Source: Escherichia coli
GTDB lineage: Bacteria > Pseudomonadota > Gammaproteobacteria > Enterobacterales > Enterobacteriaceae
Length of the DNA: 64,000 bases
Assembly (NCBI RefSeq): GCF_045037415.1
Contig: NZ_CP173440.1
Reading direction: 5' to 3' (one strand)
Part shown: positions 42,843-54,770 of the stretch, piece after piece
Numbering within the stretch: position 1 is the stretch's first letter
Layout of the letters: each line of letters opens with the position of its first letter
Translations under genes and position numbers: made by a program
The notes under the pieces: generated by a model
What the model was told of the DNA's origin: nothing
Seen by the model: only the letters and a program-made list of their open reading frames with translations
Database searches by the model: none

Positions 42843-43662
42843 GGCACTGTTGCAAAGTTAGCGATGAGGCAGCCTTTTGTCTTATTCAAAGGCCTTACAT
42901 TTCAAAAACTCTGCTTACCAGGCGCATTTCGCCCAGGGGATCACCATAATAAAATGCTGAGGCCTGGCCTTTGCGTAGTGCACGCATCACCTCAATACCT
43001 TTGATGGTGGCGTAAGCCGTCTTCATGGATTTAAATCCCAGCGTGGCGCCGATTATCCGTTTCAGTTTGCCATGATCGCATTCAATCACGTTGTTCCGGT
43101 ACTTAATCTGTCGGTGTTCAACGTCAGACGGGCACCGGCCTTCGCGTTTGAGCAGAGCAAGCGCGCGACCATAGGCGGGCGCTTTATCCGTGTTGATGAA
43201 TCGCGGGATCTGCCACTTCTTCACGTTGTTGAGGATTTTACCCAGAAACCGGTATGCAGCTTTGCTGTTACGACGGGAGGAGAGATAAAAATCGACAGTG
43301 CGGCCCCGGCTGTCGACGGCCCGGTACAGATACGCCCAGCGGCCATTGACCTTCACGTAGGTTTCATCCATGTGCCACGGGCAAAGATCGGAAGGGTTAC
43401 GCCAGTACCAGCGCAGCCGTTTTTCCATTTCAGGCGCATAACGCTGAACCCAGCGGTAAATCGTGGAGTGATCGACATTCACTCCGCGTTCAGCCAGCAT
43501 CTCCTGCAGCTCACGGTAACTGATGCCGTATTTGCAGTACCAGCGTACGGCCCACAGAATGATGTCACGCTGAAAATGCCGGCCTTTGAATGGGTTCATG
43601 TGCAGCTCCATCAGCAAAAGGGGATGATAAGTTTATCACCACCGACTATTTGCAACAGTGCC
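42843..43662 (-). mobile_element. IS26 copy 5
   Basis: 820 bp with IRs. Confidence 0.95.
42895..43617 (-). CDS. tnp26: IS26 transposase Tnp26
   Basis: Identical to the copy 1 product. Confidence 0.95.
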
Positions 43663-45180
43663 CTTTCGACTACCTCCCCTCAAAGCCATATCACGTACGT
43701 TAATCCTGACTTCATTAAAATCAGTGGTTTCACTGAGGAAGAACTATTAGGCCAGCCTCACAACATCGTAAGACACCCAGATATGCCGCCTGCTGCATTT
43801 GAGCATATGTGGAGTACATTAAAATCTGGCCGCTCATGGATGGGGCTAGTAAAAAATCGCTGTAAAAATGGCGACCACTATTGGGTAAGTGCTTATGTAA
43901 CGCCAATAGCTAAGAATGGTTCGATTGTTGAATACCAGTCTGTAAGGACCAAGCCTGAACCTGAGCAGGTTTTGGCTGCGGAAAAATTATATGCTCAATT
44001 GAGAAGCGGGAAGGCCGCGAGGCCGAAATTGGCTGCTAGCTTTTCCGTGAAAATACTCTTGCTCATATGGGGTAGTATTATATCAAGCGCAATGGCTGCC
44101 GGCATGCTTACTGATACATCAATAAGCAGCTTATTGTTAGCCACTTTAATGTCAGGAAGCTTAAGCTCTGTTAGTGTTTTGGCTATTCTCTCTCCTCTTG
44201 GAAGACTGGTTGAAAGAGCCAGGAATATTTCCAATAACCCATTAAGTCAATCCCTCTACACTGGGCGCACCGATGAGTTTGGCCAAATAGAGTTTGCTTT
44301 ACGAATGATGCAAGCTGAAACAGGCGCCATAGTAGGTCGCATAGGTGATGCATCAAATCGGCTTAGCGAACACACCCGAGGCCTACTAAAGGATATTGAG
44401 TCAAGCAATGTACTTACAGTTGAGCAGCAGGCAGAGACAGATCAAATAGCAACGGCAGTAAACCAAATGGTGGCAAGCATTCAAGAGGTTGCGAGCAATG
44501 CACAGCATGCTGCAGATGCGGCCGGAAGAGCAGACACTGAGACGGCATCTGGCCAGCGTCTGGTAGCCCACACAAGCCAGTCAATCACTGCCCTTGAAGG
44601 TGAAATTAGGCAAGCCACTCAGGTTATTCATGAGCTTGAAGGTCAAAGTAACGAGATATCAAAAGTTCTTGACGTTATACGAGGGATCGCCGAGCAAACG
44701 AATTTGTTGGCACTCAACGCAGCAATTGAGGCCGCGCGTGCTGGTGAGCAGGGGCGTGGTTTTGCTGTTGTCGCCGATGAGGTTCGCAGTCTTGCTGCTC
44801 GCACACAGCAATCGACAACGGATATTCAAAGCATGATCAGCGCTCTACAAGAGCGAGCGCAATCCGCTGTTACAGTCATGGAGCAAAGTAGTCGGCAAGC
44901 GCACACGAGTGTAGCTCACGCAGAGGAAGCAGCTACAGCTCTTGATGGAATTGGCCAACGCGTTAACGAAATTACCGACATGAACGCGCAAATAGCGACT
45001 GCGGTCGAGCAGCAGGGAGCAGTAAGTGAAGACATAAACCGCAGTATTATCAATATACGCGATGCTGCTGATACCAATGTACAGACCGGGCAGAATAATT
45101 TGCAAAGTGCGAAATCTGTCGCTCAGTTAACTAGCGCTCTGAGCGAACTGGCAAAACAGTTTTGGGAAAAACGAGGATAA
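43663..45180 (+). pseudogene. Methyl-accepting chemotaxis protein with PAS domain (Aer-like), 5'-truncated by IS26
   Basis: After the IS26 end the frame reads a PAS-like segment ([41 protein letters not shown]), two TM helices, then an MCP signalling domain ([35 protein letters not shown]). Confidence 0.75.
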
Positions 45181-45450
45181 CGCTTTTCAGTATCTCGACA
45201 GGGATAACTTACTTTACCATCGGTTATCCCTTTTAGCCGCACAAATTTTAGCCATGGCTTTTCAGGAAGTCAGGGCTATCAGAATGGCCTTAGAAAGCCT
45301 AGTCAAAGAGCTGTCACGAGAACACCGTTAGCTTAGCGTACGATTTTTTCCGAATTCTGCGGTTCCCCCTTTCATGGCTTTTCAGCTGAGTAATTCTCTC
45401 AATAAGCCATCTGAAATTACTGTATGACATTCTATCCTCTACAAGACATT

Positions 45451-46446
45451 TTAATCATTTGTGTTTGGTAATAAATTTAAAAGTTCGCCAGGTAATGTCT
45501 CGTCTTCTAGTAGCATAAAGTTCCCATCCAGAAACTCTAAGTTAATATATTCTCTGTATAGTTGAATATACTGATTAATGGTGTAACATAAGTTATTACA
45601 GATGATGCTACAGTTTTCTCCCCATAAGTCGTGCTCTTTCTGAAGGTTTTCATGCATTTCATAGGGTTCATTTTTTTTCCAGCTTTTTAAAACCATATAT
45701 CCTCTTCGCCCCATTTCCATATATCTAAACTCCATGAAATGTTTTTCAAGAGCAAGAATCCATGGGTACATTGCTTCAATTGCTTCTTTAAAACCCGGAA
45801 TATCATACGTTTGTTGATTACAAATGCCGACAATTTTCCTCAAATCCCTTAAAGTATCAGCTTCAATATAATTGGCAGACAAATTAGTGACAAAGAGGCC
45901 TGGCTGATCTAAAGGTAAATGCCTGACTAGGTAGTTATGTATAACCATTTCTTTCTTATATGAGGGCGTCTCGACATTCAAAAATGTTTTTAACTTTGAT
46001 GCTGGTAATTTCATTGCTAAACGGTGAAGGCTCGAAGAGCTGAAAACATCTGCGTGTTCTAACTTATAATCTTCTTTAATTTTCGCAAGAGTGGTATATA
46101 TCTCTTTTGGAAACCCCTGTTCTTTATCATTGATAACCGCATAAAAAACTTTAAACTCGCAAGACTCATTCCATGATTCTTTTATTTTTTCAACATCTGC
46201 TTTCATTTTTTTTATTGCAAATTTTATTGTTTCGCGATTTAATTCCTCCGGAGCGTATACTTGATAATATTCCCCTCGCTCTGGAATATAACCATCGTTA
46301 CCGCCATCACCTTTTCTTCCCCAAGGTTTGACCTTCCTGAATTTTTCAGGGTAAGATAACTCCATTACGGTTTCAAATAGTCTTTGATATTCTACACCGT
46401 TGCTACGGAGTATTTCTAAACGCATACGTGCCCAAAAATCTGACAT
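45451..46446 (-). CDS. Hypothetical protein with an N-terminal Mrr-type nuclease-like motif (WGRKGDGGNDGYI); AT-rich gene
   Basis: 331-aa ORF; G-D-G-G-x-D-G motif resembles the Mrr catalytic domain, but the usual (E/Q)-x-K lysine is not evident (YQVY). Confidence 0.5.
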   Translation of the reverse strand: MSDFWARMRLEILRSNGVEYQRLFETVMELSYPEKFRKVKPWGRKGDGGNDGYIPERGEYYQVYAPEELNRETIKFAIKKMKADVEKIKESWNESCEFKVFYAVINDKEQGFPKEIYTTLAKIKEDYKLEHADVFSSSSLHRLAMKLPASKLKTFLNVETPSYKKEMVIHNYLVRHLPLDQPGLFVTNLSANYIEADTLRDLRKIVGICNQQTYDIPGFKEAIEAMYPWILALEKHFMEFRYMEMGRRGYMVLKSWKKNEPYEMHENLQKEHDLWGENCSIICNNLCYTINQYIQLYREYINLEFLDGNFMLLEDETLPGELLNLLPNTND

Positions 46447-46707
46447 ATAAAAATTTCCTCGAAAATAGCAGATCTCTAATGTTTATCTATTCCTTATCAT
46501 CTTTTATTGGGAAAAACAACCTCAACGCATTAACTACCGAAAGTAAGCTTAAACGGGTGTGAAGGCCGTAACCATTTCCATCCAGATATAGCGAGACCAT
46601 TGTTCACATCCCACAACTGAACGAGGCCCAATTTAGCAATCCACCACGCAGAGAAAGTAAAGGAATCTTATGGCATAGATGCACGTAAGTGGTAAGGTAC
46701 TGGGCAT

Positions 46708-47625
46708 CTACAAAACCTTATTTCTAAGCCATCGAGCCAGTCCGGTGTCCAGTATGAGTTCGGCAAGCCTGATGGGGCCAATCATAGTGACTCCTTCAGC
46801 ACGAAGGTCCTCACTCAATGTCCCTCGATGCCAGACAAAGAACATTCGAGCATAGCTGTCACTGGTCTGGAACAGTGACAGATACTCAGAGAATACAGAC
46901 GGGTCAGCAACAGACTTCACTTGCACAAATGCCCGTTCGCCGGTAGTGGGCAGTTCAAGCTCAATGTCTACGGTCTTCTGTGTCCTCCCAAGGCACCCGG
47001 TTCTTCTCCATCCGCTGGCGGAAAAAATCAGATCTACCAGCAATTCAAAGTCCTGCCAGGTAAGTAAACTACACAGCCTCGTAATAGCCTTAAGGTACTG
47101 AGCTTCAGCAATATCCGCGTCTTTGATTTCCGGCGATTGCTCGTCGTTAATTTTCCGCAGGGCGTAATCGGCCAAACGCACATCGCAGATGGTACCCCGG
47201 TAACTCTGTGTAGCGAGCAAAGCACCGCTAAGGACGCTGTGGGAGAGAAGGTTTCCGGCCAGACTATGGTTGTGCCATCCGTTCACAGTGGGGCGGATCC
47301 TGCTGCCATCATCCAGTTCTGTGACTTCCCCGGAAGGCTGACACCAATACAATAATCCCTGGCTGAAAGTTATGAACAGCATATCGGGGGTGGCTGTGTA
47401 AAATGTCCTTATCTGCCTGACATCACTGGTGGCAGTGGACTGGTTATATTTCCTCTCTTCTAACCAGACTTTATTGACTTCTTCCCACTTTCCCTCAAGA
47501 CACATCTGATGGGGTGTTTTGTCGTAACCAAACCTAATAATGCCAGATGTCAGGCACTCACGTTCCCATTCGCCTCCCTCTCCCAGCTTGATGTATTTAA
47601 CTGCAGTAGCCCGAATCTTTTCCAA
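46708..47625 (-). CDS. Hypothetical protein with a C-terminal PD-(D/E)xK restriction-endonuclease-like domain
   Basis: 305-aa ORF; C-terminal FELLVDLIFSASGW...VDIELELPTTGERAFVQVK fits a D...E...QxK nuclease core; N-terminal ~190 aa unassigned. Confidence 0.5.
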   Translation of the reverse strand: MEKIRATAVKYIKLGEGGEWERECLTSGIIRFGYDKTPHQMCLEGKWEEVNKVWLEERKYNQSTATSDVRQIRTFYTATPDMLFITFSQGLLYWCQPSGEVTELDDGSRIRPTVNGWHNHSLAGNLLSHSVLSGALLATQSYRGTICDVRLADYALRKINDEQSPEIKDADIAEAQYLKAITRLCSLLTWQDFELLVDLIFSASGWRRTGCLGRTQKTVDIELELPTTGERAFVQVKSVADPSVFSEYLSLFQTSDSYARMFFVWHRGTLSEDLRAEGVTMIGPIRLAELILDTGLARWLRNKVL

Positions 47626-47713
47626 AATACAATCACTCCGTTAAACGAATATCCAGACAGAATAGGAGGTTCTGTCCAGCGCCCACAAAAAAGCCACTTT
47701 CGCGGGGTGTGTC

Positions 47714-48046
47714 TTATTTTTTCGCGACCAGATGAACACCTTCCGCTTTATCGGCGGCCAGCTGAATAAGCCCATCATACTCTTCAATCACATGATCATG
47801 ACCATGTACGGACCACTCACAGCTCTGACATTTAATCCCAAACCGCACCTCTCCGGAGTCGCAGCTCACTACTATAACCTTTGACAGACACCCACTGGGT
47901 TTCACGTTGTACTGAAGCTCGGCGTTCATATCAAACCAAACTTTATCGATACGAGTCTGTAGCTTCGCCTGAAAATCCGGGCGTGTTTCCGCCATCCTGA
48001 CGGCTTCAACAGATAATACCTTATATTTGCCCTGCTGAAGTGGCAC
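47714..48046 (-). CDS. Small hypothetical Cys/His-rich protein
   Basis: 110-aa ORF with CxxxxxxxC and CQSCEWSVHGHDH motifs suggesting metal binding. Confidence 0.4.
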   Translation of the reverse strand: MPLQQGKYKVLSVEAVRMAETRPDFQAKLQTRIDKVWFDMNAELQYNVKPSGCLSKVIVVSCDSGEVRFGIKCQSCEWSVHGHDHVIEEYDGLIQLAADKAEGVHLVAKK

Positions 48047-49109
48047 GCCAGGCCAGCGGCGTATGGCGGTGTCTGTCCAGAGACGGGAGTTCTTAAGTTG
48101 GTAGACGGTGATCCATTTTTCTGACCATTCATAAAATTTCTGGCATAGCAGCTTCTACAGCAAACTTTCGGTCACCAATTAAATCCCCTGGATTTTACCC
48201 ATACCTGCTCTTCCCTGGAATGTCGTTAATATCCACGGTATCAGGTCAGAGCTGTAACGACCAGCAGCGCCAGTGGAAATAGTCCGGCCAGTACCGGCTC
48301 CTTACCCCGGATTGATGTCTACTGTATGCGATAAATTTGGGAAAAACTGGCGATGGCCATTCTTCTGATTCTGATCGCCGGCAAGCGTGTCAGGTAGCAA
48401 AAGAGCGAACGTAAGACAACATACCCTTGAGGGTCCTGACCTTCAACGTGCCCGACCCGGCCCCCGCCGCGCGGACGAAAAAAAGAGAAAAAATAAAAAA
48501 AAAGAAAAAAAGAATATGCCGAAAATGTGCACAGTCGCGACCCACGCAGAGCGTGGCGCTCCGGGGCAAAGGCTTTGCAGGACTATAAGGCATGTTGTCT
48601 TACGTTTTGAGTGTGATGGTTACGAGCCCACCAGCTTTCATGAATTGTCCCGCCGGGTGGACTGCTATAAAGTGCATACCAGCACTGCAGCCCCTGCCGG
48701 TGATGAAGAATAATTCCGTTCAGGCGAGTATTGAGCAAGACCTTTACTACGTATTAAAACCTGGTACTCCGGGATGACGATGCCTGAGGTGCTTACCACC
48801 GGGAGAAGCAATTCGTTTATGGCGCCAGCAGCTGGTACCTGGCAGAGTTAAGTTCTTATCGCAAAGGATGATAAAAATGAGCCATGGCAAATGTGAGCCG
48901 ACAAACACGAATGCCGCCGATTACAAGCTGTACGCGCGATTCGATGCTGGTGAAACGCTTGAAAGCGTTTTAGCCTCTCCTCCGACCACGAAGCACAATA
49001 AAGTAACTTCTGAAGGAAACATCAGGACTGAACACAGAATGTGGATAGCGTGGAGAAAGAAGCATCCCAGACCACTCTGATTATCAGTGACGATTAATAA
49101 GGATAAAAC

Positions 49110-49424
49110 ATGCGAACGACAAGTATCACCCTGTGTCTGGTTTTGGCGAGTTTTGGTGTATCCGCTAAAATCCTTGCAGACCCAGACCTTACTTACCAGG
49201 CAAATAAAACGTGTGCTAAACGAGATGAACTGGAACTGAAAGTCCCTTTAGAAGCCAATAATCCCTACTCTCCCACATGGGGTTTGGACAAGGGCATGGT
49301 GCAGGCCACAATTGACGCACTGAAAGAAAATCCAGACATCGCCCCGACTGACTCTGTAGCCTGCCAACAGGCTGCAATAAAACAGTATCGGGCTGGGCAA
49401 AAACACTACAGTAAGCTCAGGTAG
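49110..49424 (+). CDS. Small hypothetical secreted protein (predicted signal peptide)
   Basis: 104-aa ORF with N-terminal MRTTSITLCLVLASFGVSA followed by a polar mature region. Confidence 0.4.
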   Translation: MRTTSITLCLVLASFGVSAKILADPDLTYQANKTCAKRDELELKVPLEANNPYSPTWGLDKGMVQATIDALKENPDIAPTDSVACQQAAIKQYRAGQKHYSKLR

Positions 49425-49628
49425 CTGCCGTGATGCCCACCAGCTGAAACCTGTGTGTGGTATAAAAACCCCGTAGCGCTGGTGCAAAACAGACCAGCGC
49501 ATTCCAGTTCTCAATCCCCTTCTGTGATGTAGGCCCCTGTCGCATTCAGACCTGAATAACCGTGCAGGGAAACATGTCAGTAAGCCATCTGGATACAAAA
49601 ACTGGTGGTATAGCCACTTTAGCTTAAA

Positions 49629-49649
49629 GCTAATGTATGCGTACATTAG
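49629..49649. repeat. 21-bp palindrome gCTAATGTAtgcgTACATTAGt followed by a T-run; partner of 50172-50192
   Basis: Read directly; the site at 50172-50192 is its exact inverse (centre cgca versus tgcg). Confidence 0.75.
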
Positions 49650-49666
49650 TTTTAAGTTTATGTTAT

Positions 49667-50149
49667 TTACCCTTCTCCCTTCCTGGATGCCTTAACCTGG
49701 GTCTGATAGTTGCGCTTTACCCGCTCAATTTCCGCCAGAGTTGCCGCCCAGTGCAGCCCTGCGGCGTGACGATATCTGGTTGCCATTTTTTCAACGGCCT
49801 CCGGAGTGCTGTCATCGCTGCGGTGCTGCCGTCCCTTCACCCCGAAAATTTCCACTATAAGCCACTGGCTACCGGTTCTGCCGAACAAGGCCTGACACAG
49901 CCGCCTCACGGCAAGCGGGGTCAGATCCGGGTCGGGATCATACGCGATGGTGGCAAAAATAAAACGCAGCATCTCAGAGGTTTTGTAGCGTTTTACCGCT
50001 GCCGCCAGCCGGGCAGCTCTTTGCGGCGCTTCCCAGCGGTCGTCGCTGTAACCTGCCACTTCAGAGAGATAGTCCTTCTCGAGTTGTTTAGCCGTGTAGC
50101 AACGTCCCCCCAAAAACATCCGCATAGCTTCTTTCGTTTCAGCTCTCAC
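49667..50149 (-). CDS. Hypothetical protein bracketed by the two palindromes
   Basis: 160-aa ORF MRAETKEAMRMFLGGRCYTAKQLEKDYLSEVAGYSDDRWEAPQRAARLAAAVKRYK...; no family recognised. Confidence 0.45.
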   Translation of the reverse strand: MRAETKEAMRMFLGGRCYTAKQLEKDYLSEVAGYSDDRWEAPQRAARLAAAVKRYKTSEMLRFIFATIAYDPDPDLTPLAVRRLCQALFGRTGSQWLIVEIFGVKGRQHRSDDSTPEAVEKMATRYRHAAGLHWAATLAEIERVKRNYQTQVKASRKGEG

Positions 50150-50171
50150 GAATCTTGTCCTCAGCCAAAGC

Positions 50172-50192
50172 TAATGTACGCATACATTAGCA
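50172..50192. repeat. 21-bp palindrome gCTAATGTAcgcaTACATTAGc, 23 bp upstream of the 49667-50149 start codon
   Basis: Read directly. Confidence 0.75.
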
Positions 50193-51095
50193 TTAAGTAT
50201 CCGGTTCAACAAAAATCAGGAAACCGATCTGATTTAGTGCATGTGGCTGTCTCTTTTGGATTATCGCTTTTGCGTTATGGTATACAGGTTACCCCTCCCC
50301 CTCTTTTCCCGCTGGTCTACTGTAGTCGACACAAAAGACAGGAACTGCGGTATGTCCTGATAATATTGTTTGAGTTTTAATCACGAAGCAGAGGGTATCG
50401 CATACAGTAGACACAACGCAGCCAGAATAACGCTCGATGTAAAATTTAGATCGTTGTCGCCTGCAGTAGACATTCCTGGTATCGACTCTGGTGCATCCAA
50501 TACTGACCCGTTCCCGGATCATGGCAGAGCATCCAGTAGACACGGTATGGAAGGACGTCAGTCCTCACCTTTCCGTCTGTTTTGACTGTGTCGGAGACGA
50601 CGGTTGCGGTTATTGTTGATGCCTTTGGCCGTCAGGTGAATACCTGTCAGTCAGGTAACTCTGTCGTTACATTTGATGCCCGAAAATCATAATTACCACA
50701 TATTAATCCGGGCATTCCGGAAAATTGTACCTGCCTGAAGAGTATCAAACGATACCTGTCTCCCCTCCTCTGAATTATCTGCTCAGTCGAGAACCTTGAC
50801 GATCGGGTGATTCAGTTTCGGCAAATGGCAGCATGATAATGTCAGCCAACAGCGTGCTGGTGAATTTATTGTCGGGCCAGACGAATTCTGTTTGTCACTG
50901 CATACTGCATGCCGGGCAGAGGAGTGAACAACGATCGAACTGAAACAGTTGCAGCGTCGTATGGAGAAAGAATGGGTTGGTTTCAGGCGGTGCTTCGGTC
51001 GGTTTCAAACAGTGTCTGACCGACTTCTGGTAAGTTTCTCCCTTGCTGTCTGGTGATTCTGTCTTGCCCGGATTGTTGACTATTGATGATGGTGT

Positions 51096-51104
51096 TTATC
51101 CACA
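51096..51104. promoter_or_regulatory. DnaA box (TTATCCACA) followed by an AT-rich tract, upstream of the repA iterons
   Basis: Consensus 9-mer read directly; AT-rich 51110-51180. Confidence 0.55.
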
Positions 51105-51214
51105 GCTTAGAATAATAACAGAAGCTTAACTAAAGCTAAGAAAAGGACAAAAAAGACTAATAAAAGAATAACGTTTTAGTGAGGCCTTGAACTACGGGGC
51201 TCTCAGGCCATCTC

Positions 51215-51346
51215 TGTCAACGCTGGCGGGTATTCTATCATTGCTGGCGGGTGAACCATCATCGCCAGAGGGTATACCATCAACGCTAACGGGGCAATTA
51301 TCATCGCCAGAGGGTAGATTTTATCAACGCCAGCGGGTAATCTGGT
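51215..51346. repeat. Origin iterons (about six ~22-bp repeats with core CAACGCTGGCGGGTA) immediately upstream of repA
   Basis: tcaacgctggcgggtattcta / tcattgctggcgggtgaacca / tcatcgccagagggtataccat / ... / tcaacgccagcgggtaatctgg. Confidence 0.65.
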
Positions 51347-51375
51347 AAAAATATCCACATCCGGGATTTTATAAA

Positions 51376-52260
51376 ATGGCCAATGATAACAATCAGTTAG
51401 CGCTAATTATCACTGAGCAAGATAAAAGTTCTGGTGAAGTTATACATTTGGTTCCTAACTCAAAACAGAGTATTCAACCTAAATCGCTACTGCGATTGGG
51501 GGTCTTTGTTCCGACAGTCAAGGATGGCAGCGACCCTATGGCACGAGGTCATGTCATCGATGCAACGACTGAGTTGTGTCGTCTTTCTTCTATCGCTGGA
51601 GAGGGGTACGAAAAGATTAGTATTTTTGGGCCCAGGCTTGATATGGATACGGATTTCAAAGTCTGGCTAGGGATCGTGGACACACTCGCCAACACGTTTC
51701 TTGAGCCTGATGGGACTGTTAGGGTCAATTTTATTGATTTTGCTTTCAGTTGTGGGCTTGCTACAAAACGAGTTGATTCAAGGTTAAGGAAACGTTTTAG
51801 CGACTCACTGACACGGATCCAGCACACCCATTTCCAGTTCATCAAAAACTCAACAGTAGAAGGGAAAAAAGTAAAGATCGACATGAGCCTGGTGTCTACT
51901 TCTTACTATGATGAGGGAACCGATGAGGTCATTATCAGGCCAAATCCGGATTTGAATACTCTGTATCGTGTCGACGGGAAGACCCGACTTTACTTAAAAA
52001 TATTGAAGACCCTGTCTCGAAAAGAATCAGCCCAGGCACTGTATCTTTATCTAGTTGAATTACCTGACCATTTTTATCGCATTGGATTCGACCGCTTAAG
52101 AGAACGGTTGCAGCTGACTTCACACAAAGGTGCTCAGAATGCGACGATAAAAAAAGCGTTAGAGCAACTGGATGAAGCTGGTTTTTTAAAATACACGATA
52201 GAAAAAAATCGTGGGGATTATGTACTGGTCATTCTTAGTCGAAACAAAAAAGTTACCTGA
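51376..52260 (+). CDS. repA: Iteron-binding replication initiator RepA (P1 RepA / RepFIB family)
   Basis: 294-aa product with LLRLGVFVPT, GPRLDMDTDFKVWLG, RKESAQALYLY and KKALEQLDEAGFL blocks shared with P1/RepFIB RepA. Confidence 0.8.
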   Translation: MANDNNQLALIITEQDKSSGEVIHLVPNSKQSIQPKSLLRLGVFVPTVKDGSDPMARGHVIDATTELCRLSSIAGEGYEKISIFGPRLDMDTDFKVWLGIVDTLANTFLEPDGTVRVNFIDFAFSCGLATKRVDSRLRKRFSDSLTRIQHTHFQFIKNSTVEGKKVKIDMSLVSTSYYDEGTDEVIIRPNPDLNTLYRVDGKTRLYLKILKTLSRKESAQALYLYLVELPDHFYRIGFDRLRERLQLTSHKGAQNATIKKALEQLDEAGFLKYTIEKNRGDYVLVILSRNKKVT

Positions 52261-53702: not shown

Positions 53703-54770
53703 CTATAGCGACTTGTTAGGATCATTTAGCAAAAACCAATCCCGAAAGGCCTGCTTGCTATCGAAGGTGGGAAGGTTATGTATGGACAAGTTCCAGTTAA
53801 TGATTTTCACTATAAAAGACAAAAATTCAATTTCAGCCTCATTCAGTACACCCTCTCCTTTTTTCCGTATATAGAAGTCATACCATCGTTCGTAGGCGGC
53901 AACATTGATAGATTCAGATGCTTCCAGAAGCCGGGGGATATAATAAACCAGTTCTTCAAAGGCAATACTGCCTTGAGGGATATCAGAACGGCTCAGGCGA
54001 CAAAGAAGGTTAATCGTGGCTCGAAGGTGATGCCACTGCTGTGCCGGGGAGGATGGGAGGGCGTTCATGCTTATCGGAAGTTCATGAGGAATTAAAGCAA
54101 GGATCTGATTTCCACTGGTAGACAGCTCACGCCGGTACTGGTGTAGAGTATGGTGTTTAACCTTCTTCATCATAGGATGGTAGATCCATTTTTTCGCTTC
54201 CTCAGAAACGAAAAGTAACTTTTCTATCGCATCCATCATCTTTATGCCTTCTCCACTCTCACGATATGGAGCGATGATACTTTCAATCCGAACGGCATCG
54301 ATCTCCACCAGCGCCAGCTGGTCTGTTTGCGCTAACAGGTCTGGATTGGGCTGGATATCCTCCGACGTATCATTAATAAATATCCCGATTGTCGTATCGT
54401 TACATATCCCTGTGAGGTCAGCATTAAGGCCACAAACAATCCCACCACCAGCGAGATTTTTGAGGTTAACTATCCCTTTCTCCTTACCCTGCAGAAGATG
54501 AGGGAGAGCAAGGTATTTTTTTTCCTGTATTTTCACCTTTATGTATTTTTTTATATGTTGTAGTGTGAGCTCACTACAAACCCCTTTTACTTCTGTGCTG
54601 TGGCTAAAATGCCATTTTTTATTTTGACCCTGTTTGGCAATCAGGGAGGTCCCACAGATGAGGCAGATACAGTTACACGAAAGCCCATTTTCAACGCTGG
54701 CGATATCAACAATTTTATTTGAATCCGTATCAAATCCAAACGGGATCCATTTTTGTGCATTACGTCGCAT
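53703..54770 (-). CDS. Hypothetical protein with CoiA-like N-terminal zinc-finger/nuclease-related motif
   Basis: 355-aa ORF; N-terminus LSCNCICLICGTSLIAKQGQNKKWHFSHS resembles the CoiA family CxxC...HFxH signature. Confidence 0.45.
   Translation of the reverse strand: MRRNAQKWIPFGFDTDSNKIVDIASVENGLSCNCICLICGTSLIAKQGQNKKWHFSHSTEVKGVCSELTLQHIKKYIKVKIQEKKYLALPHLLQGKEKGIVNLKNLAGGGIVCGLNADLTGICNDTTIGIFINDTSEDIQPNPDLLAQTDQLALVEIDAVRIESIIAPYRESGEGIKMMDAIEKLLFVSEEAKKWIYHPMMKKVKHHTLHQYRRELSTSGNQILALIPHELPISMNALPSSPAQQWHHLRATINLLCRLSRSDIPQGSIAFEELVYYIPRLLEASESINVAAYERWYDFYIRKKGEGVLNEAEIEFLSFIVKIINWNLSIHNLPTFDSKQAFRDWFLLNDPNKSL

Follow-up and report, generated by a model that had tools for sequence, protein, structure and literature searches.

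Fusion of a reader domain of the PUA type with a nuclease is an established architecture of modification-dependent restriction endonucleases (PMC6765204, PMC7897488). YTH-like domains are also found fused to PD-(D/E)XK nucleases; these fusions are predicted to be restriction-associated and are rare and mainly archaeal (PMC7641849). In Lamassu systems, the LmuA protein is held inactive and becomes a nuclease upon release and oligomerization via its C-terminal domain (bioRxiv 10.1101/2025.06.23.660979). The locus described here encodes proteins that can be compared with both types. It lies in a 64,000-nucleotide stretch of contig NZ_CP173440.1 (Escherichia coli, assembly GCF_045037415.1), which is called the window below. 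An earlier sequence-only reading had pointed to three co-directional open reading frames as a candidate defense module. The frames, termed P1, P2 and ORF3, are located as it had placed them, all on the minus strand:

45451-46446, minus strand: P1, 331 amino acids, ATG start, GC 35.1%
46708-47625, minus strand: P2, 305 amino acids, TTG start, GC 50.1%
47714-48046, minus strand: ORF3, 110 amino acids, GTG start, GC 48%

The GC content of the whole window is 50.1%. The locus is best explained, with a probability of roughly 0.6, as a cargo hot spot that has received two independent single-gene nuclease units, P1 and P2, and that carries one recombination scar, ORF3.

The 3.1-kb region is found with 100% identity in ~90 plasmids of Klebsiella pneumoniae that range in size from 180 to 460 kb and are of the IncHI1B/IncFIB, MOBH and MPF_F types; P1 and P2 are thus both present in ~90 sequenced plasmids. 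The best-matching record is pKpvST147B_virulence (NZ_CP040726.1). P1 (WP_004026572.1) and P2 (WP_004026570.1) are both annotated as "hypothetical protein" in RefSeq. ORF3 has no listed gene in NZ_CP040726.1, for which the PLSDB gene table is incomplete; other matching records show three hypothetical proteins. Searches of the three proteins against Pfam, NCBIfam, PHROGs and PADLOC gave sub-threshold matches only. Among these, matches to Tiam_CC_Ex, PRK11032, HECT, AWS and JetB were discarded as noise.

A cargo hot spot with separately acquired genes

A comparison with plasmid pNDM-1-EC12 separates the two larger genes. This plasmid has a 94%-identical P2 at the same site, abutting the kinase gene of the Ter cluster, and lacks P1 as well as the two sequences that contribute to ORF3, the zinc-ribbon gene and the backbone open reading frame. 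Two units can be delimited:

46696-47663, minus strand: P2 single-gene cassette of ~970 bp, the gene with 38 bp upstream and 12 bp downstream
45371-46695, minus strand: A + T-rich P1 segment of ~1.3 kb, GC 35%, absent from pNDM-1-EC12

The DNA of the P2 cassette is 93.7% identical to that of pNDM-1-EC12, whereas the flanking backbone shows only 71-79% identity (blastn). The P1 segment stands in place of 173 bp of pNDM-1-EC12. P2 is found without P1 in pNDM-1-EC12 and in six other contexts, relatives of P1 are also found without P2, and the two are together only in this plasmid lineage. The contrast in GC content between P1 and P2 (35.1% and 50.1%) had led to the suggestion of two separate acquisitions, and the pNDM-1-EC12 comparison bears this out in the form of a P2 cassette and a separate P1 segment. 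The concept of the trio as a module does not survive: P1 and P2 occur apart elsewhere, ORF3 is a scar, and the trio is an accident of successive insertions.

It had also been proposed to look at related plasmids, and here too the module dissolves. Neither gene is found in sister plasmids of the same replicon, whose cargo at this site is unrelated. In pSYCC1, the same site (L003:168-4851) holds a GNAT/DUF1778 toxin-antitoxin pair, a DUF2971 gene, an EcsC gene and small hypothetical genes. The DUF2971 protein matches PADLOC family PDC-S31 (E 5e-93) and the EcsC protein PDC-S29 (E 8e-86). In a further contig, L004 (1072-3225), the cargo at this site consists of a P1 homolog and a DUF2971 gene. 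As different cargo occupies the same position in sister plasmids, the site represents a hot spot for single-gene, defense-type cargo or for addiction genes. On its two sides are the kinase gene of the Ter cluster and the RepB replicon, in a K. pneumoniae plasmid of the IncHI1B/IncFIB type.

The closeness of the genes to repB, a Tus-like gene and an integrase gene would be in keeping with a housekeeping role for the plasmid in replication, resolution or partition. Such a role is hardly credible, given that sister plasmids of the same replicon have unrelated cargo at the site in place of both genes, that no NCBIfam or Pfam maintenance-family matches were obtained, and that homologs are found in chromosomes and in unrelated plasmids.

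ORF3, a recombination scar

ORF3 consists of parts of two unrelated sequences:

47714-47941, minus strand: the 3′ 75 codons of a zinc-ribbon gene, whose intact form encodes 91-93 amino acids with CPEC...CQSC; the first CxxC is gone
47942-48202, minus strand: decayed 5′ part of a backbone open reading frame of ~113 amino acids, whose last 35 codons form the ORF3 N-terminus

An alignment with pSYCC1 shows that the window from ~48400 down to 47942 is conserved backbone and that the backbone open reading frame at 47942-48202 is disrupted by a 1-bp and a 38-bp deletion. Homology to pSYCC1 ends at 47941/47942, and megablast places the boundary identically. After the junction, ORF3 matches the last 75 codons of proteins of 91-93 amino acids (P0277-P0279), and a tblastn search with the intact zinc-ribbon form aligns only its residues 17-91 to the window. 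The N-termini of P0277-P0279 contain the CPEC motif, which forms a four-Cys zinc ribbon with CQSC. ORF3 has only one of the two CxxC knuckles: CQSC is kept, and unrelated backbone sequence stands where the N-terminal knuckle would be. In contig L012, a copy of this plasmid from a metagenome, neither deletion is present and there is a 175-amino-acid in-frame fusion (P0275).

The junction and the lost half of the zinc site argue that ORF3 is a junction artefact. On the alignments, it is probably a non-functional fusion of a backbone open reading frame with a truncated zinc-ribbon gene, and not a bona fide gene. The sequence-only reading had been right that the frame is rich in Cys and His (4 Cys and 4 His in 110 residues); what falls is its place as a gene of a module.

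The backbone open reading frame of ~113 amino acids (P0281, P0283; L003:4959-5300, L004:624-929) is conserved across backbones of the IncHI1B/IncFIB type at the right edge of the hot spot. In all cargo variants, the junction with it follows the codons for "...TRIDK". Recombination may therefore recur at this point, or the DNA may have a non-coding function.

In one metagenomic contig, an intact zinc-ribbon gene is found just upstream of a 96%-identical P2. In contig L010 the gene lies beside genes for a RelB-domain protein and an Abi_2 protein, with no P2, and it is absent from the other P2 loci. A zinc-ribbon/P2 pair was considered and rejected, as they lie side by side in a single foreign contig and show no linkage elsewhere. 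The intact zinc-ribbon gene of L010 (3050-5759) overlaps the end of the 207-codon RelB-domain gene by 4 bp and is downstream of the Abi_2 gene. It may be that the small zinc-ribbon protein has a separate toxin-antitoxin or abortive-infection context.

These findings bear on whether the three frames form one co-transcribed defense operon, with a zinc-finger sensor or regulator and two nucleases. The frames are adjacent and co-directional, no strong terminator was detected between them, and the contig with the intact zinc-ribbon gene upstream of P2 is consistent with such an arrangement. Its distribution has already largely refuted it: P2 is without P1 in the pNDM-1-EC12 hot spot and six other contexts, P1 relatives are without P2, and the zinc-ribbon gene is without P2 in L010 and missing from most P2 loci. 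The 15-point difference in GC content, the movement of P2 as a 970-bp cassette, and the fusion of ORF3, without its first CxxC, to an unrelated frame also speak against an operon, which is very unlikely.

P2, a putative modification-dependent nuclease

P2 belongs to a family of 1,174 homologous clusters (E <= 1e-3), nearly all with proteins of 300-320 amino acids. The relatives are mostly proteobacterial. A few are named "restriction endonuclease" or have a precomputed match to PF04471, and such a match is found for 8 listed homologs. The protein has two domains:

47176-47625, minus strand: PUA-like (YTH/EVE-type) putative modified-base reader, residues ~1-150, with invariant aromatics
46711-47064, minus strand: Mrr-type PD-(D/E)xK nuclease domain, residues 188-305, with E194 / D220 / Q235-V-K237

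An alignment of 32 chosen members at 52-89% identity shows ~70 invariant residues. Among these are E194, D198, D220, Q235 and K237 and the N-terminal aromatics W20, Y34, W47, Y76, W94 and W117. The motifs FELLVDL, VDIELE and FVQVK, from which a PD-(D/E)xK core had been proposed, are present in the translation, all within the last third of P2. The proposal holds, with E194, D220, Q235 and K237 invariant in the 32 members; the catalytic residues are intact.

The AlphaFold model of P2 has a pLDDT (predicted local distance difference test) of 91.7. It shows a PUA-superfamily barrel (~1-150) followed by a long linker helix (residues 165-186). The closest fold matches of the N-terminal domain are RNA m6A readers (YTH), and further matches are McrB N-domains, THYN1, VcaM4I and MspJI/AspBHI. 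Sequence searches of P2 against the PDB, with the single sequence and with a profile, gave nothing meaningful. Based on the model, the N-terminal domain appears to be of the PUA-like, YTH/EVE-type class of modified-base readers. An N-terminal domain of ~190 residues had been described as unassigned; the region can now be assigned to a PUA-like reader and a linker helix.

The relation of P2 to known defense families was followed with PADLOC, a check that had been suggested for the locus. The window proteins themselves remain below threshold; P2 homologs do match PDC-S02, with E values down to 1.1e-9. All ten diverged homologs that were compared match PDLC04816 or PDLC04806 of this family collinearly (E 1.1e-9 to 5e-3). 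These collinear matches indicate that P2 is a distant sister of a family flagged from defense islands, and not a member of it.

P2 combines a PUA-superfamily domain and a nuclease in one polypeptide, and its most likely identity is a stand-alone restriction endonuclease of type IV (modification-dependent). When DNA enters, the PUA-like pocket would recognize a modified base in it by base flipping. Base reading would then position or license the C-terminal Mrr-type PD-QxK nuclease, which would cut nearby. It is proposed that P2 dispenses with a protective methyltransferase because only modified DNA would be attacked. The annotations of four plasmid contexts and of the reference plasmid show no methyltransferase beside P2 or its homologs, and none is found among the Pfam matches of the neighbors in two metagenomic P2 contexts. 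Hosts of the P2 family have Dam/Dcm or CcrM methylation of their own. The target of P2 would therefore presumably differ from these and represent some other modification or sequence context.

A second possibility is that P2 is a sensor-nuclease: its PUA-like domain would recognize a modified nucleotide or modified RNA made during infection (for example m6-dAMP or m6A RNA), and abortive degradation of nucleic acids would follow. That the closest fold matches are YTH readers of RNA m6A is in accord with this, as is the lack of restriction of T4, T5 and T7 by a PDC-S02 representative, and a PUA-domain defense system that senses m6-dAMP is described in PMC12871103. The same fold class, however, reads modified bases in duplex DNA (McrB N-domains, THYN1, VcaM4I, MspJI/AspBHI), and PD-QxK domains of the Mrr type are those typically seen in DNA restriction. 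A sensor-nuclease is therefore unlikely; it would still be a defense function, with only the trigger different.

The genomic neighbors of P2 homologs vary. On a Novosphingobium plasmid, they are a restriction endonuclease, a HEPN protein and a DUF4238 protein. In the short contig L011 they are all unannotated. P2 homologs at 80% identity are found in environmental plasmids (L005-L007). These plasmids have backbone genes in common with the window (L005-L007:7759-8823 and window 53703-54770), encoding a CoiA_N-like protein of 355 amino acids, Hha, an integrase and a Tus/Ter protein. The common backbone and the 80%-identical P2 suggest that the P2 cassette circulates among distant members of this plasmid group.

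P1, an orphan LmuA-like protein

P1 also has two domains:

45982-46446, minus strand: effector domain with restriction-endonuclease (REase) fold, residues 1-155, with a non-canonical site
45454-45981, minus strand: C-terminal all-helical domain, residues 156-331, from DSSP of the model and the alignment

A word-indexed search of 5.8 billion proteins found 7 relatives of P1; with phmmer, run exhaustively, 838 representatives were retrieved, nearly all aligned only over residues ~5-160. Residues 156-331 are common to only 8 full-length relatives, which are 24-70% identical. The C-terminal domain is without a Pfam, PADLOC or PDB match. Sequence comparison of P1 with the PDB, by single sequence and by profile, gave nothing meaningful. 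In the AlphaFold2 model (pLDDT 86.3), the N-domain has a restriction-endonuclease fold. When the profiles of the P1 and P2 families were compared, no relationship emerged (probability 0.2%), which argues that their nuclease domains are not recent duplicates.

The non-canonical site comprises D47, N50-D51-G52, Q62-x-Y64, K80, D84 and N106-D107-K108. Conservation was computed over 141 sequences of the N-domain: D47 100%, N50 99%, D51 100%, G52 100%, Q62 99%, P66 99%, K80 99%, D84 97%, N106 99% and D107 96%. The sequence-only reading had singled out the motif WGRKGDGGNDGYI, which is present in the translation as residues 42-54, and had called it Mrr-like without an obvious catalytic lysine. This was accurate. 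Position 64, which corresponds to the canonical Lys of (D/E)xK, is Tyr in 84%, Phe in 13% and His in 3%. K80 is in the helix that follows the strand site, and D51 and Q62 are present; K80 is a candidate for a migrated lysine.

N-domain relatives of P1 have diverse C-terminal parts and include proteins of ~310 amino acids and TPR-containing proteins of ~1,270 amino acids. One relative of ~310 amino acids carries Pfam CTD10, and MC6 and DUF2326 genes come after the gene that encodes it. This is a canonical ABC-three-component (ABC-3C) locus (type II Lamassu-like), which PADLOC matches to PDC-M68 and more weakly to LmuB. The first ~130 positions (~10-135) of the PADLOC LmuA model PDLC03852 match P1 with an E value of 0.0074. 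The same model matches seven relatives of 464-1,270 amino acids and the full-length relative P0143 with E values of 1.4e-5 to 1.7e-9. Plasmid-borne P1 relatives are named "ABC-three component system protein" by NCBI. The nuclease and defense character originally seen in the locus is supported.

P1 may be considered an orphan LmuA-like effector without an SMC partner. It has an LmuA-like layout and effector domain but no recognized C-terminal domain (CTD) family and no adjacent LmuB, and so it lacks two defining LmuA features. The private helical domain presumably keeps P1 inactive until a trigger or oligomerization. By analogy with Lamassu it is proposed, with moderate confidence, that P1 would be a self-contained, conditionally activated DNase of the abortive-infection or toxin type.

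P1 has P2 on one side and a transposon end or the kinase gene on the other. Some of its full-length relatives are solitary between housekeeping genes. One is beside an integrase in an integrative element, one is next to a PDC-S06 ATPase, and one is directly upstream of a giant NTPase-like gene. A 71%-identical relative is upstream of a DUF2971/PDC-S31 gene. DUF2971/PDC-S31 was considered as an obligatory partner and rejected, being absent here and present without P1 in pSYCC1. An ATPase partner was likewise rejected, as it is found in only two of the six contexts of full-length relatives. The giant gene (L018:1303-6290) starts 13 bp after the gene of full-length relative P0138, encodes >1,866 amino acids and has weak matches to NPHP3_N/AAA_22 (STAND-like NTPase). 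This locus may be a two-gene system with the P1-type protein as effector.

P1 might instead be a decayed orphan remnant of a Lamassu/ABC-3C-type system, or a catalytically dead REase-fold protein with a non-enzymatic role. The (D/E)xK position is without Lys, neither LmuB/LmuC nor any other partner is encoded nearby, full-length relatives are very rare, and a transposon end is situated 80 bp downstream of P1 in the window. Decay is nevertheless the less likely reading. The open reading frame is intact, the invariant polar residues D47, D51, Q62, K80, D84, N106 and D107 are all kept, and Tyr64 is the family norm and not a local mutation. Migration of the Lys within PD-(D/E)xK folds is well known. 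The eight full-length relatives (24-70% identity) keep both domains and are often solitary, which argues that the P1 type is self-sufficient.

Evaluation of the interpretation

Several points weigh against the view of two independent nuclease units in a cargo hot spot. The match of P2 to Pfam Mrr_cat (PF04471; i-E 0.0063, 17 bits, residues 188-244) is sub-threshold, and so is its match to PDC-S02 (E 0.0055). In E. coli B, a PDC-S02 representative failed to protect against T4, T5 and T7 (bioRxiv 10.1101/2024.09.26.614923). The Foldseek matches of P1 are not significant, its position 64 is without the canonical Lys, and its C-domain matches no LmuA CTD family that docks on LmuB. LmuB or LmuC is not found near P1 in the window, the part of the ~340-kb plasmid that was scanned: its only open reading frame of at least 550 amino acids is that of a methyl-accepting chemotaxis protein (MCP). 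P1 could be inactive. The near-identity of the locus over ~90 plasmids is due to recent clonal spread and not to selection.

A more ambitious joint reading can also be formulated. P2 would be of the first widespread bacterial family of YTH-like restriction enzymes, with a new modified-base specificity borne by epidemic Klebsiella plasmids, and P1 with its eight full-length relatives would form a new family of self-contained immune or toxin proteins, each encoded by a single gene. Its members would have an effector nuclease of the Lamassu type whose active site has been rewired (Q-x-Y and a helix-borne Lys); no longer tied to the SMC partner, this nuclease would be coupled to a helical sensor domain private to the family. 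Taken together, these two propositions are rather improbable.

Neighboring genes and sequences

The genes that flank the locus are as the sequence-only reading had them. On the left is an MCP gene, directly adjacent to IS26, and on the right a RepB gene. The MCP has a PAS domain. On the right side, hypothetical genes precede the RepB replication initiator gene, and its surroundings also include a Tus-like gene and an integrase gene. The left boundary of the cargo region is as follows:

45200-45370, no strand: probable transposon end, Tn3-family, Tn1721-like, of a transposon that carries the MCP gene

This 170-bp sequence is found with ~100% identity in most of 3,326 matching plasmids, and its last ~40 bp overlap features annotated as TnAs1/ISPa40-family (Tn3-family) transposases. 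It is presumably a Tn1721-like transposon end. The MCP gene (43072-45180) with the 170 bp after it resembles the end of a Tn1721-like Tn3-family transposon, which is truncated by IS26 on the other side. In CP128716.1 and contig L012, the junction of P1 with the kinase gene is without the 170-bp transposon end.

An Rfam scan of window positions 45000-51500 gave no match, and scans of the locus for promoters and terminators gave results at chance level only. An A-rich, lysine-codon-like tract (48387-48600) with AAGAAAAG repeats separates the hot spot from the hypothetical genes that follow; it too is without an Rfam match.

Significance

P2 is a putative, uncharacterized addition to the reader-plus-nuclease type IV enzymes, and P1 is a variant of the Lamassu-type effector without partners; nothing among P1, P2 and ORF3 is categorically new. 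Of interest is mainly how large the unannotated P2 family is and that it occurs on epidemic Klebsiella plasmids. The IncHI1B/IncFIB hybrid plasmids with P1 and P2 bring carbapenem resistance and virulence together in K. pneumoniae. If P2 is modification-dependent, it could shape the entry of competing plasmids and of phages, including therapeutic phages with modified DNA. The family comprises >1,100 clusters, is uncharacterized and is not recognized by Pfam or NCBIfam, so that one biochemical study would annotate many genomes; such a study might also give a new reagent for epigenetic mapping. P1 offers a natural test case for whether a Lamassu-type effector works without the SMC scaffold. In addition, a hot spot for defense cargo is revealed next to the replicon of this plasmid group.

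Comparison with known systems

P2 has the same domain order as enzymes of the MspJI/AspBHI type, with an N-terminal PUA-like reader and a C-terminal PD-(D/E)xK nuclease, and it too is encoded by a solitary gene. There is no detectable sequence similarity of P2 to MspJI/AspBHI, VcaM4I or McrB. The reader of MspJI is SRA-like, whereas that of P2 is closer in fold to YTH/EVE, and P2 differs from the MspJI/AspBHI type also by its Mrr-type (QxK) nuclease. The published YTH-like fusions are rare and mostly archaeal; the P2 family, in contrast, is large and proteobacterial.

With E. coli Mrr and Mrr_cat (PF04471), the P2 core has in common the D...QxK signature and the "FE..V..L" helix. Mrr has an N-terminal winged-helix domain, and P2 has a PUA-like barrel in its place. 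P2 of the window falls below the Pfam Mrr_cat threshold, whereas several homologs have precomputed PF04471 matches. Homologs of P2 are similar in length (~300 amino acids) to the single-gene, unvalidated PDC-S02 family and match its hidden Markov models collinearly over the full length; the matches are weak and PADLOC would not call P2.

Compared with Lamassu, P1 has no adjacent LmuB (SMC-like ATPase) or LmuC, and its C-domain is outside the catalogued CTD families. The Lamassu systems that have been studied have a Cap4-type nuclease; the P1 effector domain is not of this type and is without the canonical Lys. P1 is the same size as LmuA of Lamassu/ABC-3C systems (~330 amino acids) and, like it, has a nuclease-fold effector at the N-terminus followed by a helical domain at the C-terminus. 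The N-domain of P1 has homologs in the N-domains of the LmuA/PDC-M68A-type proteins encoded beside MC6 and DUF2326 ATPase genes.

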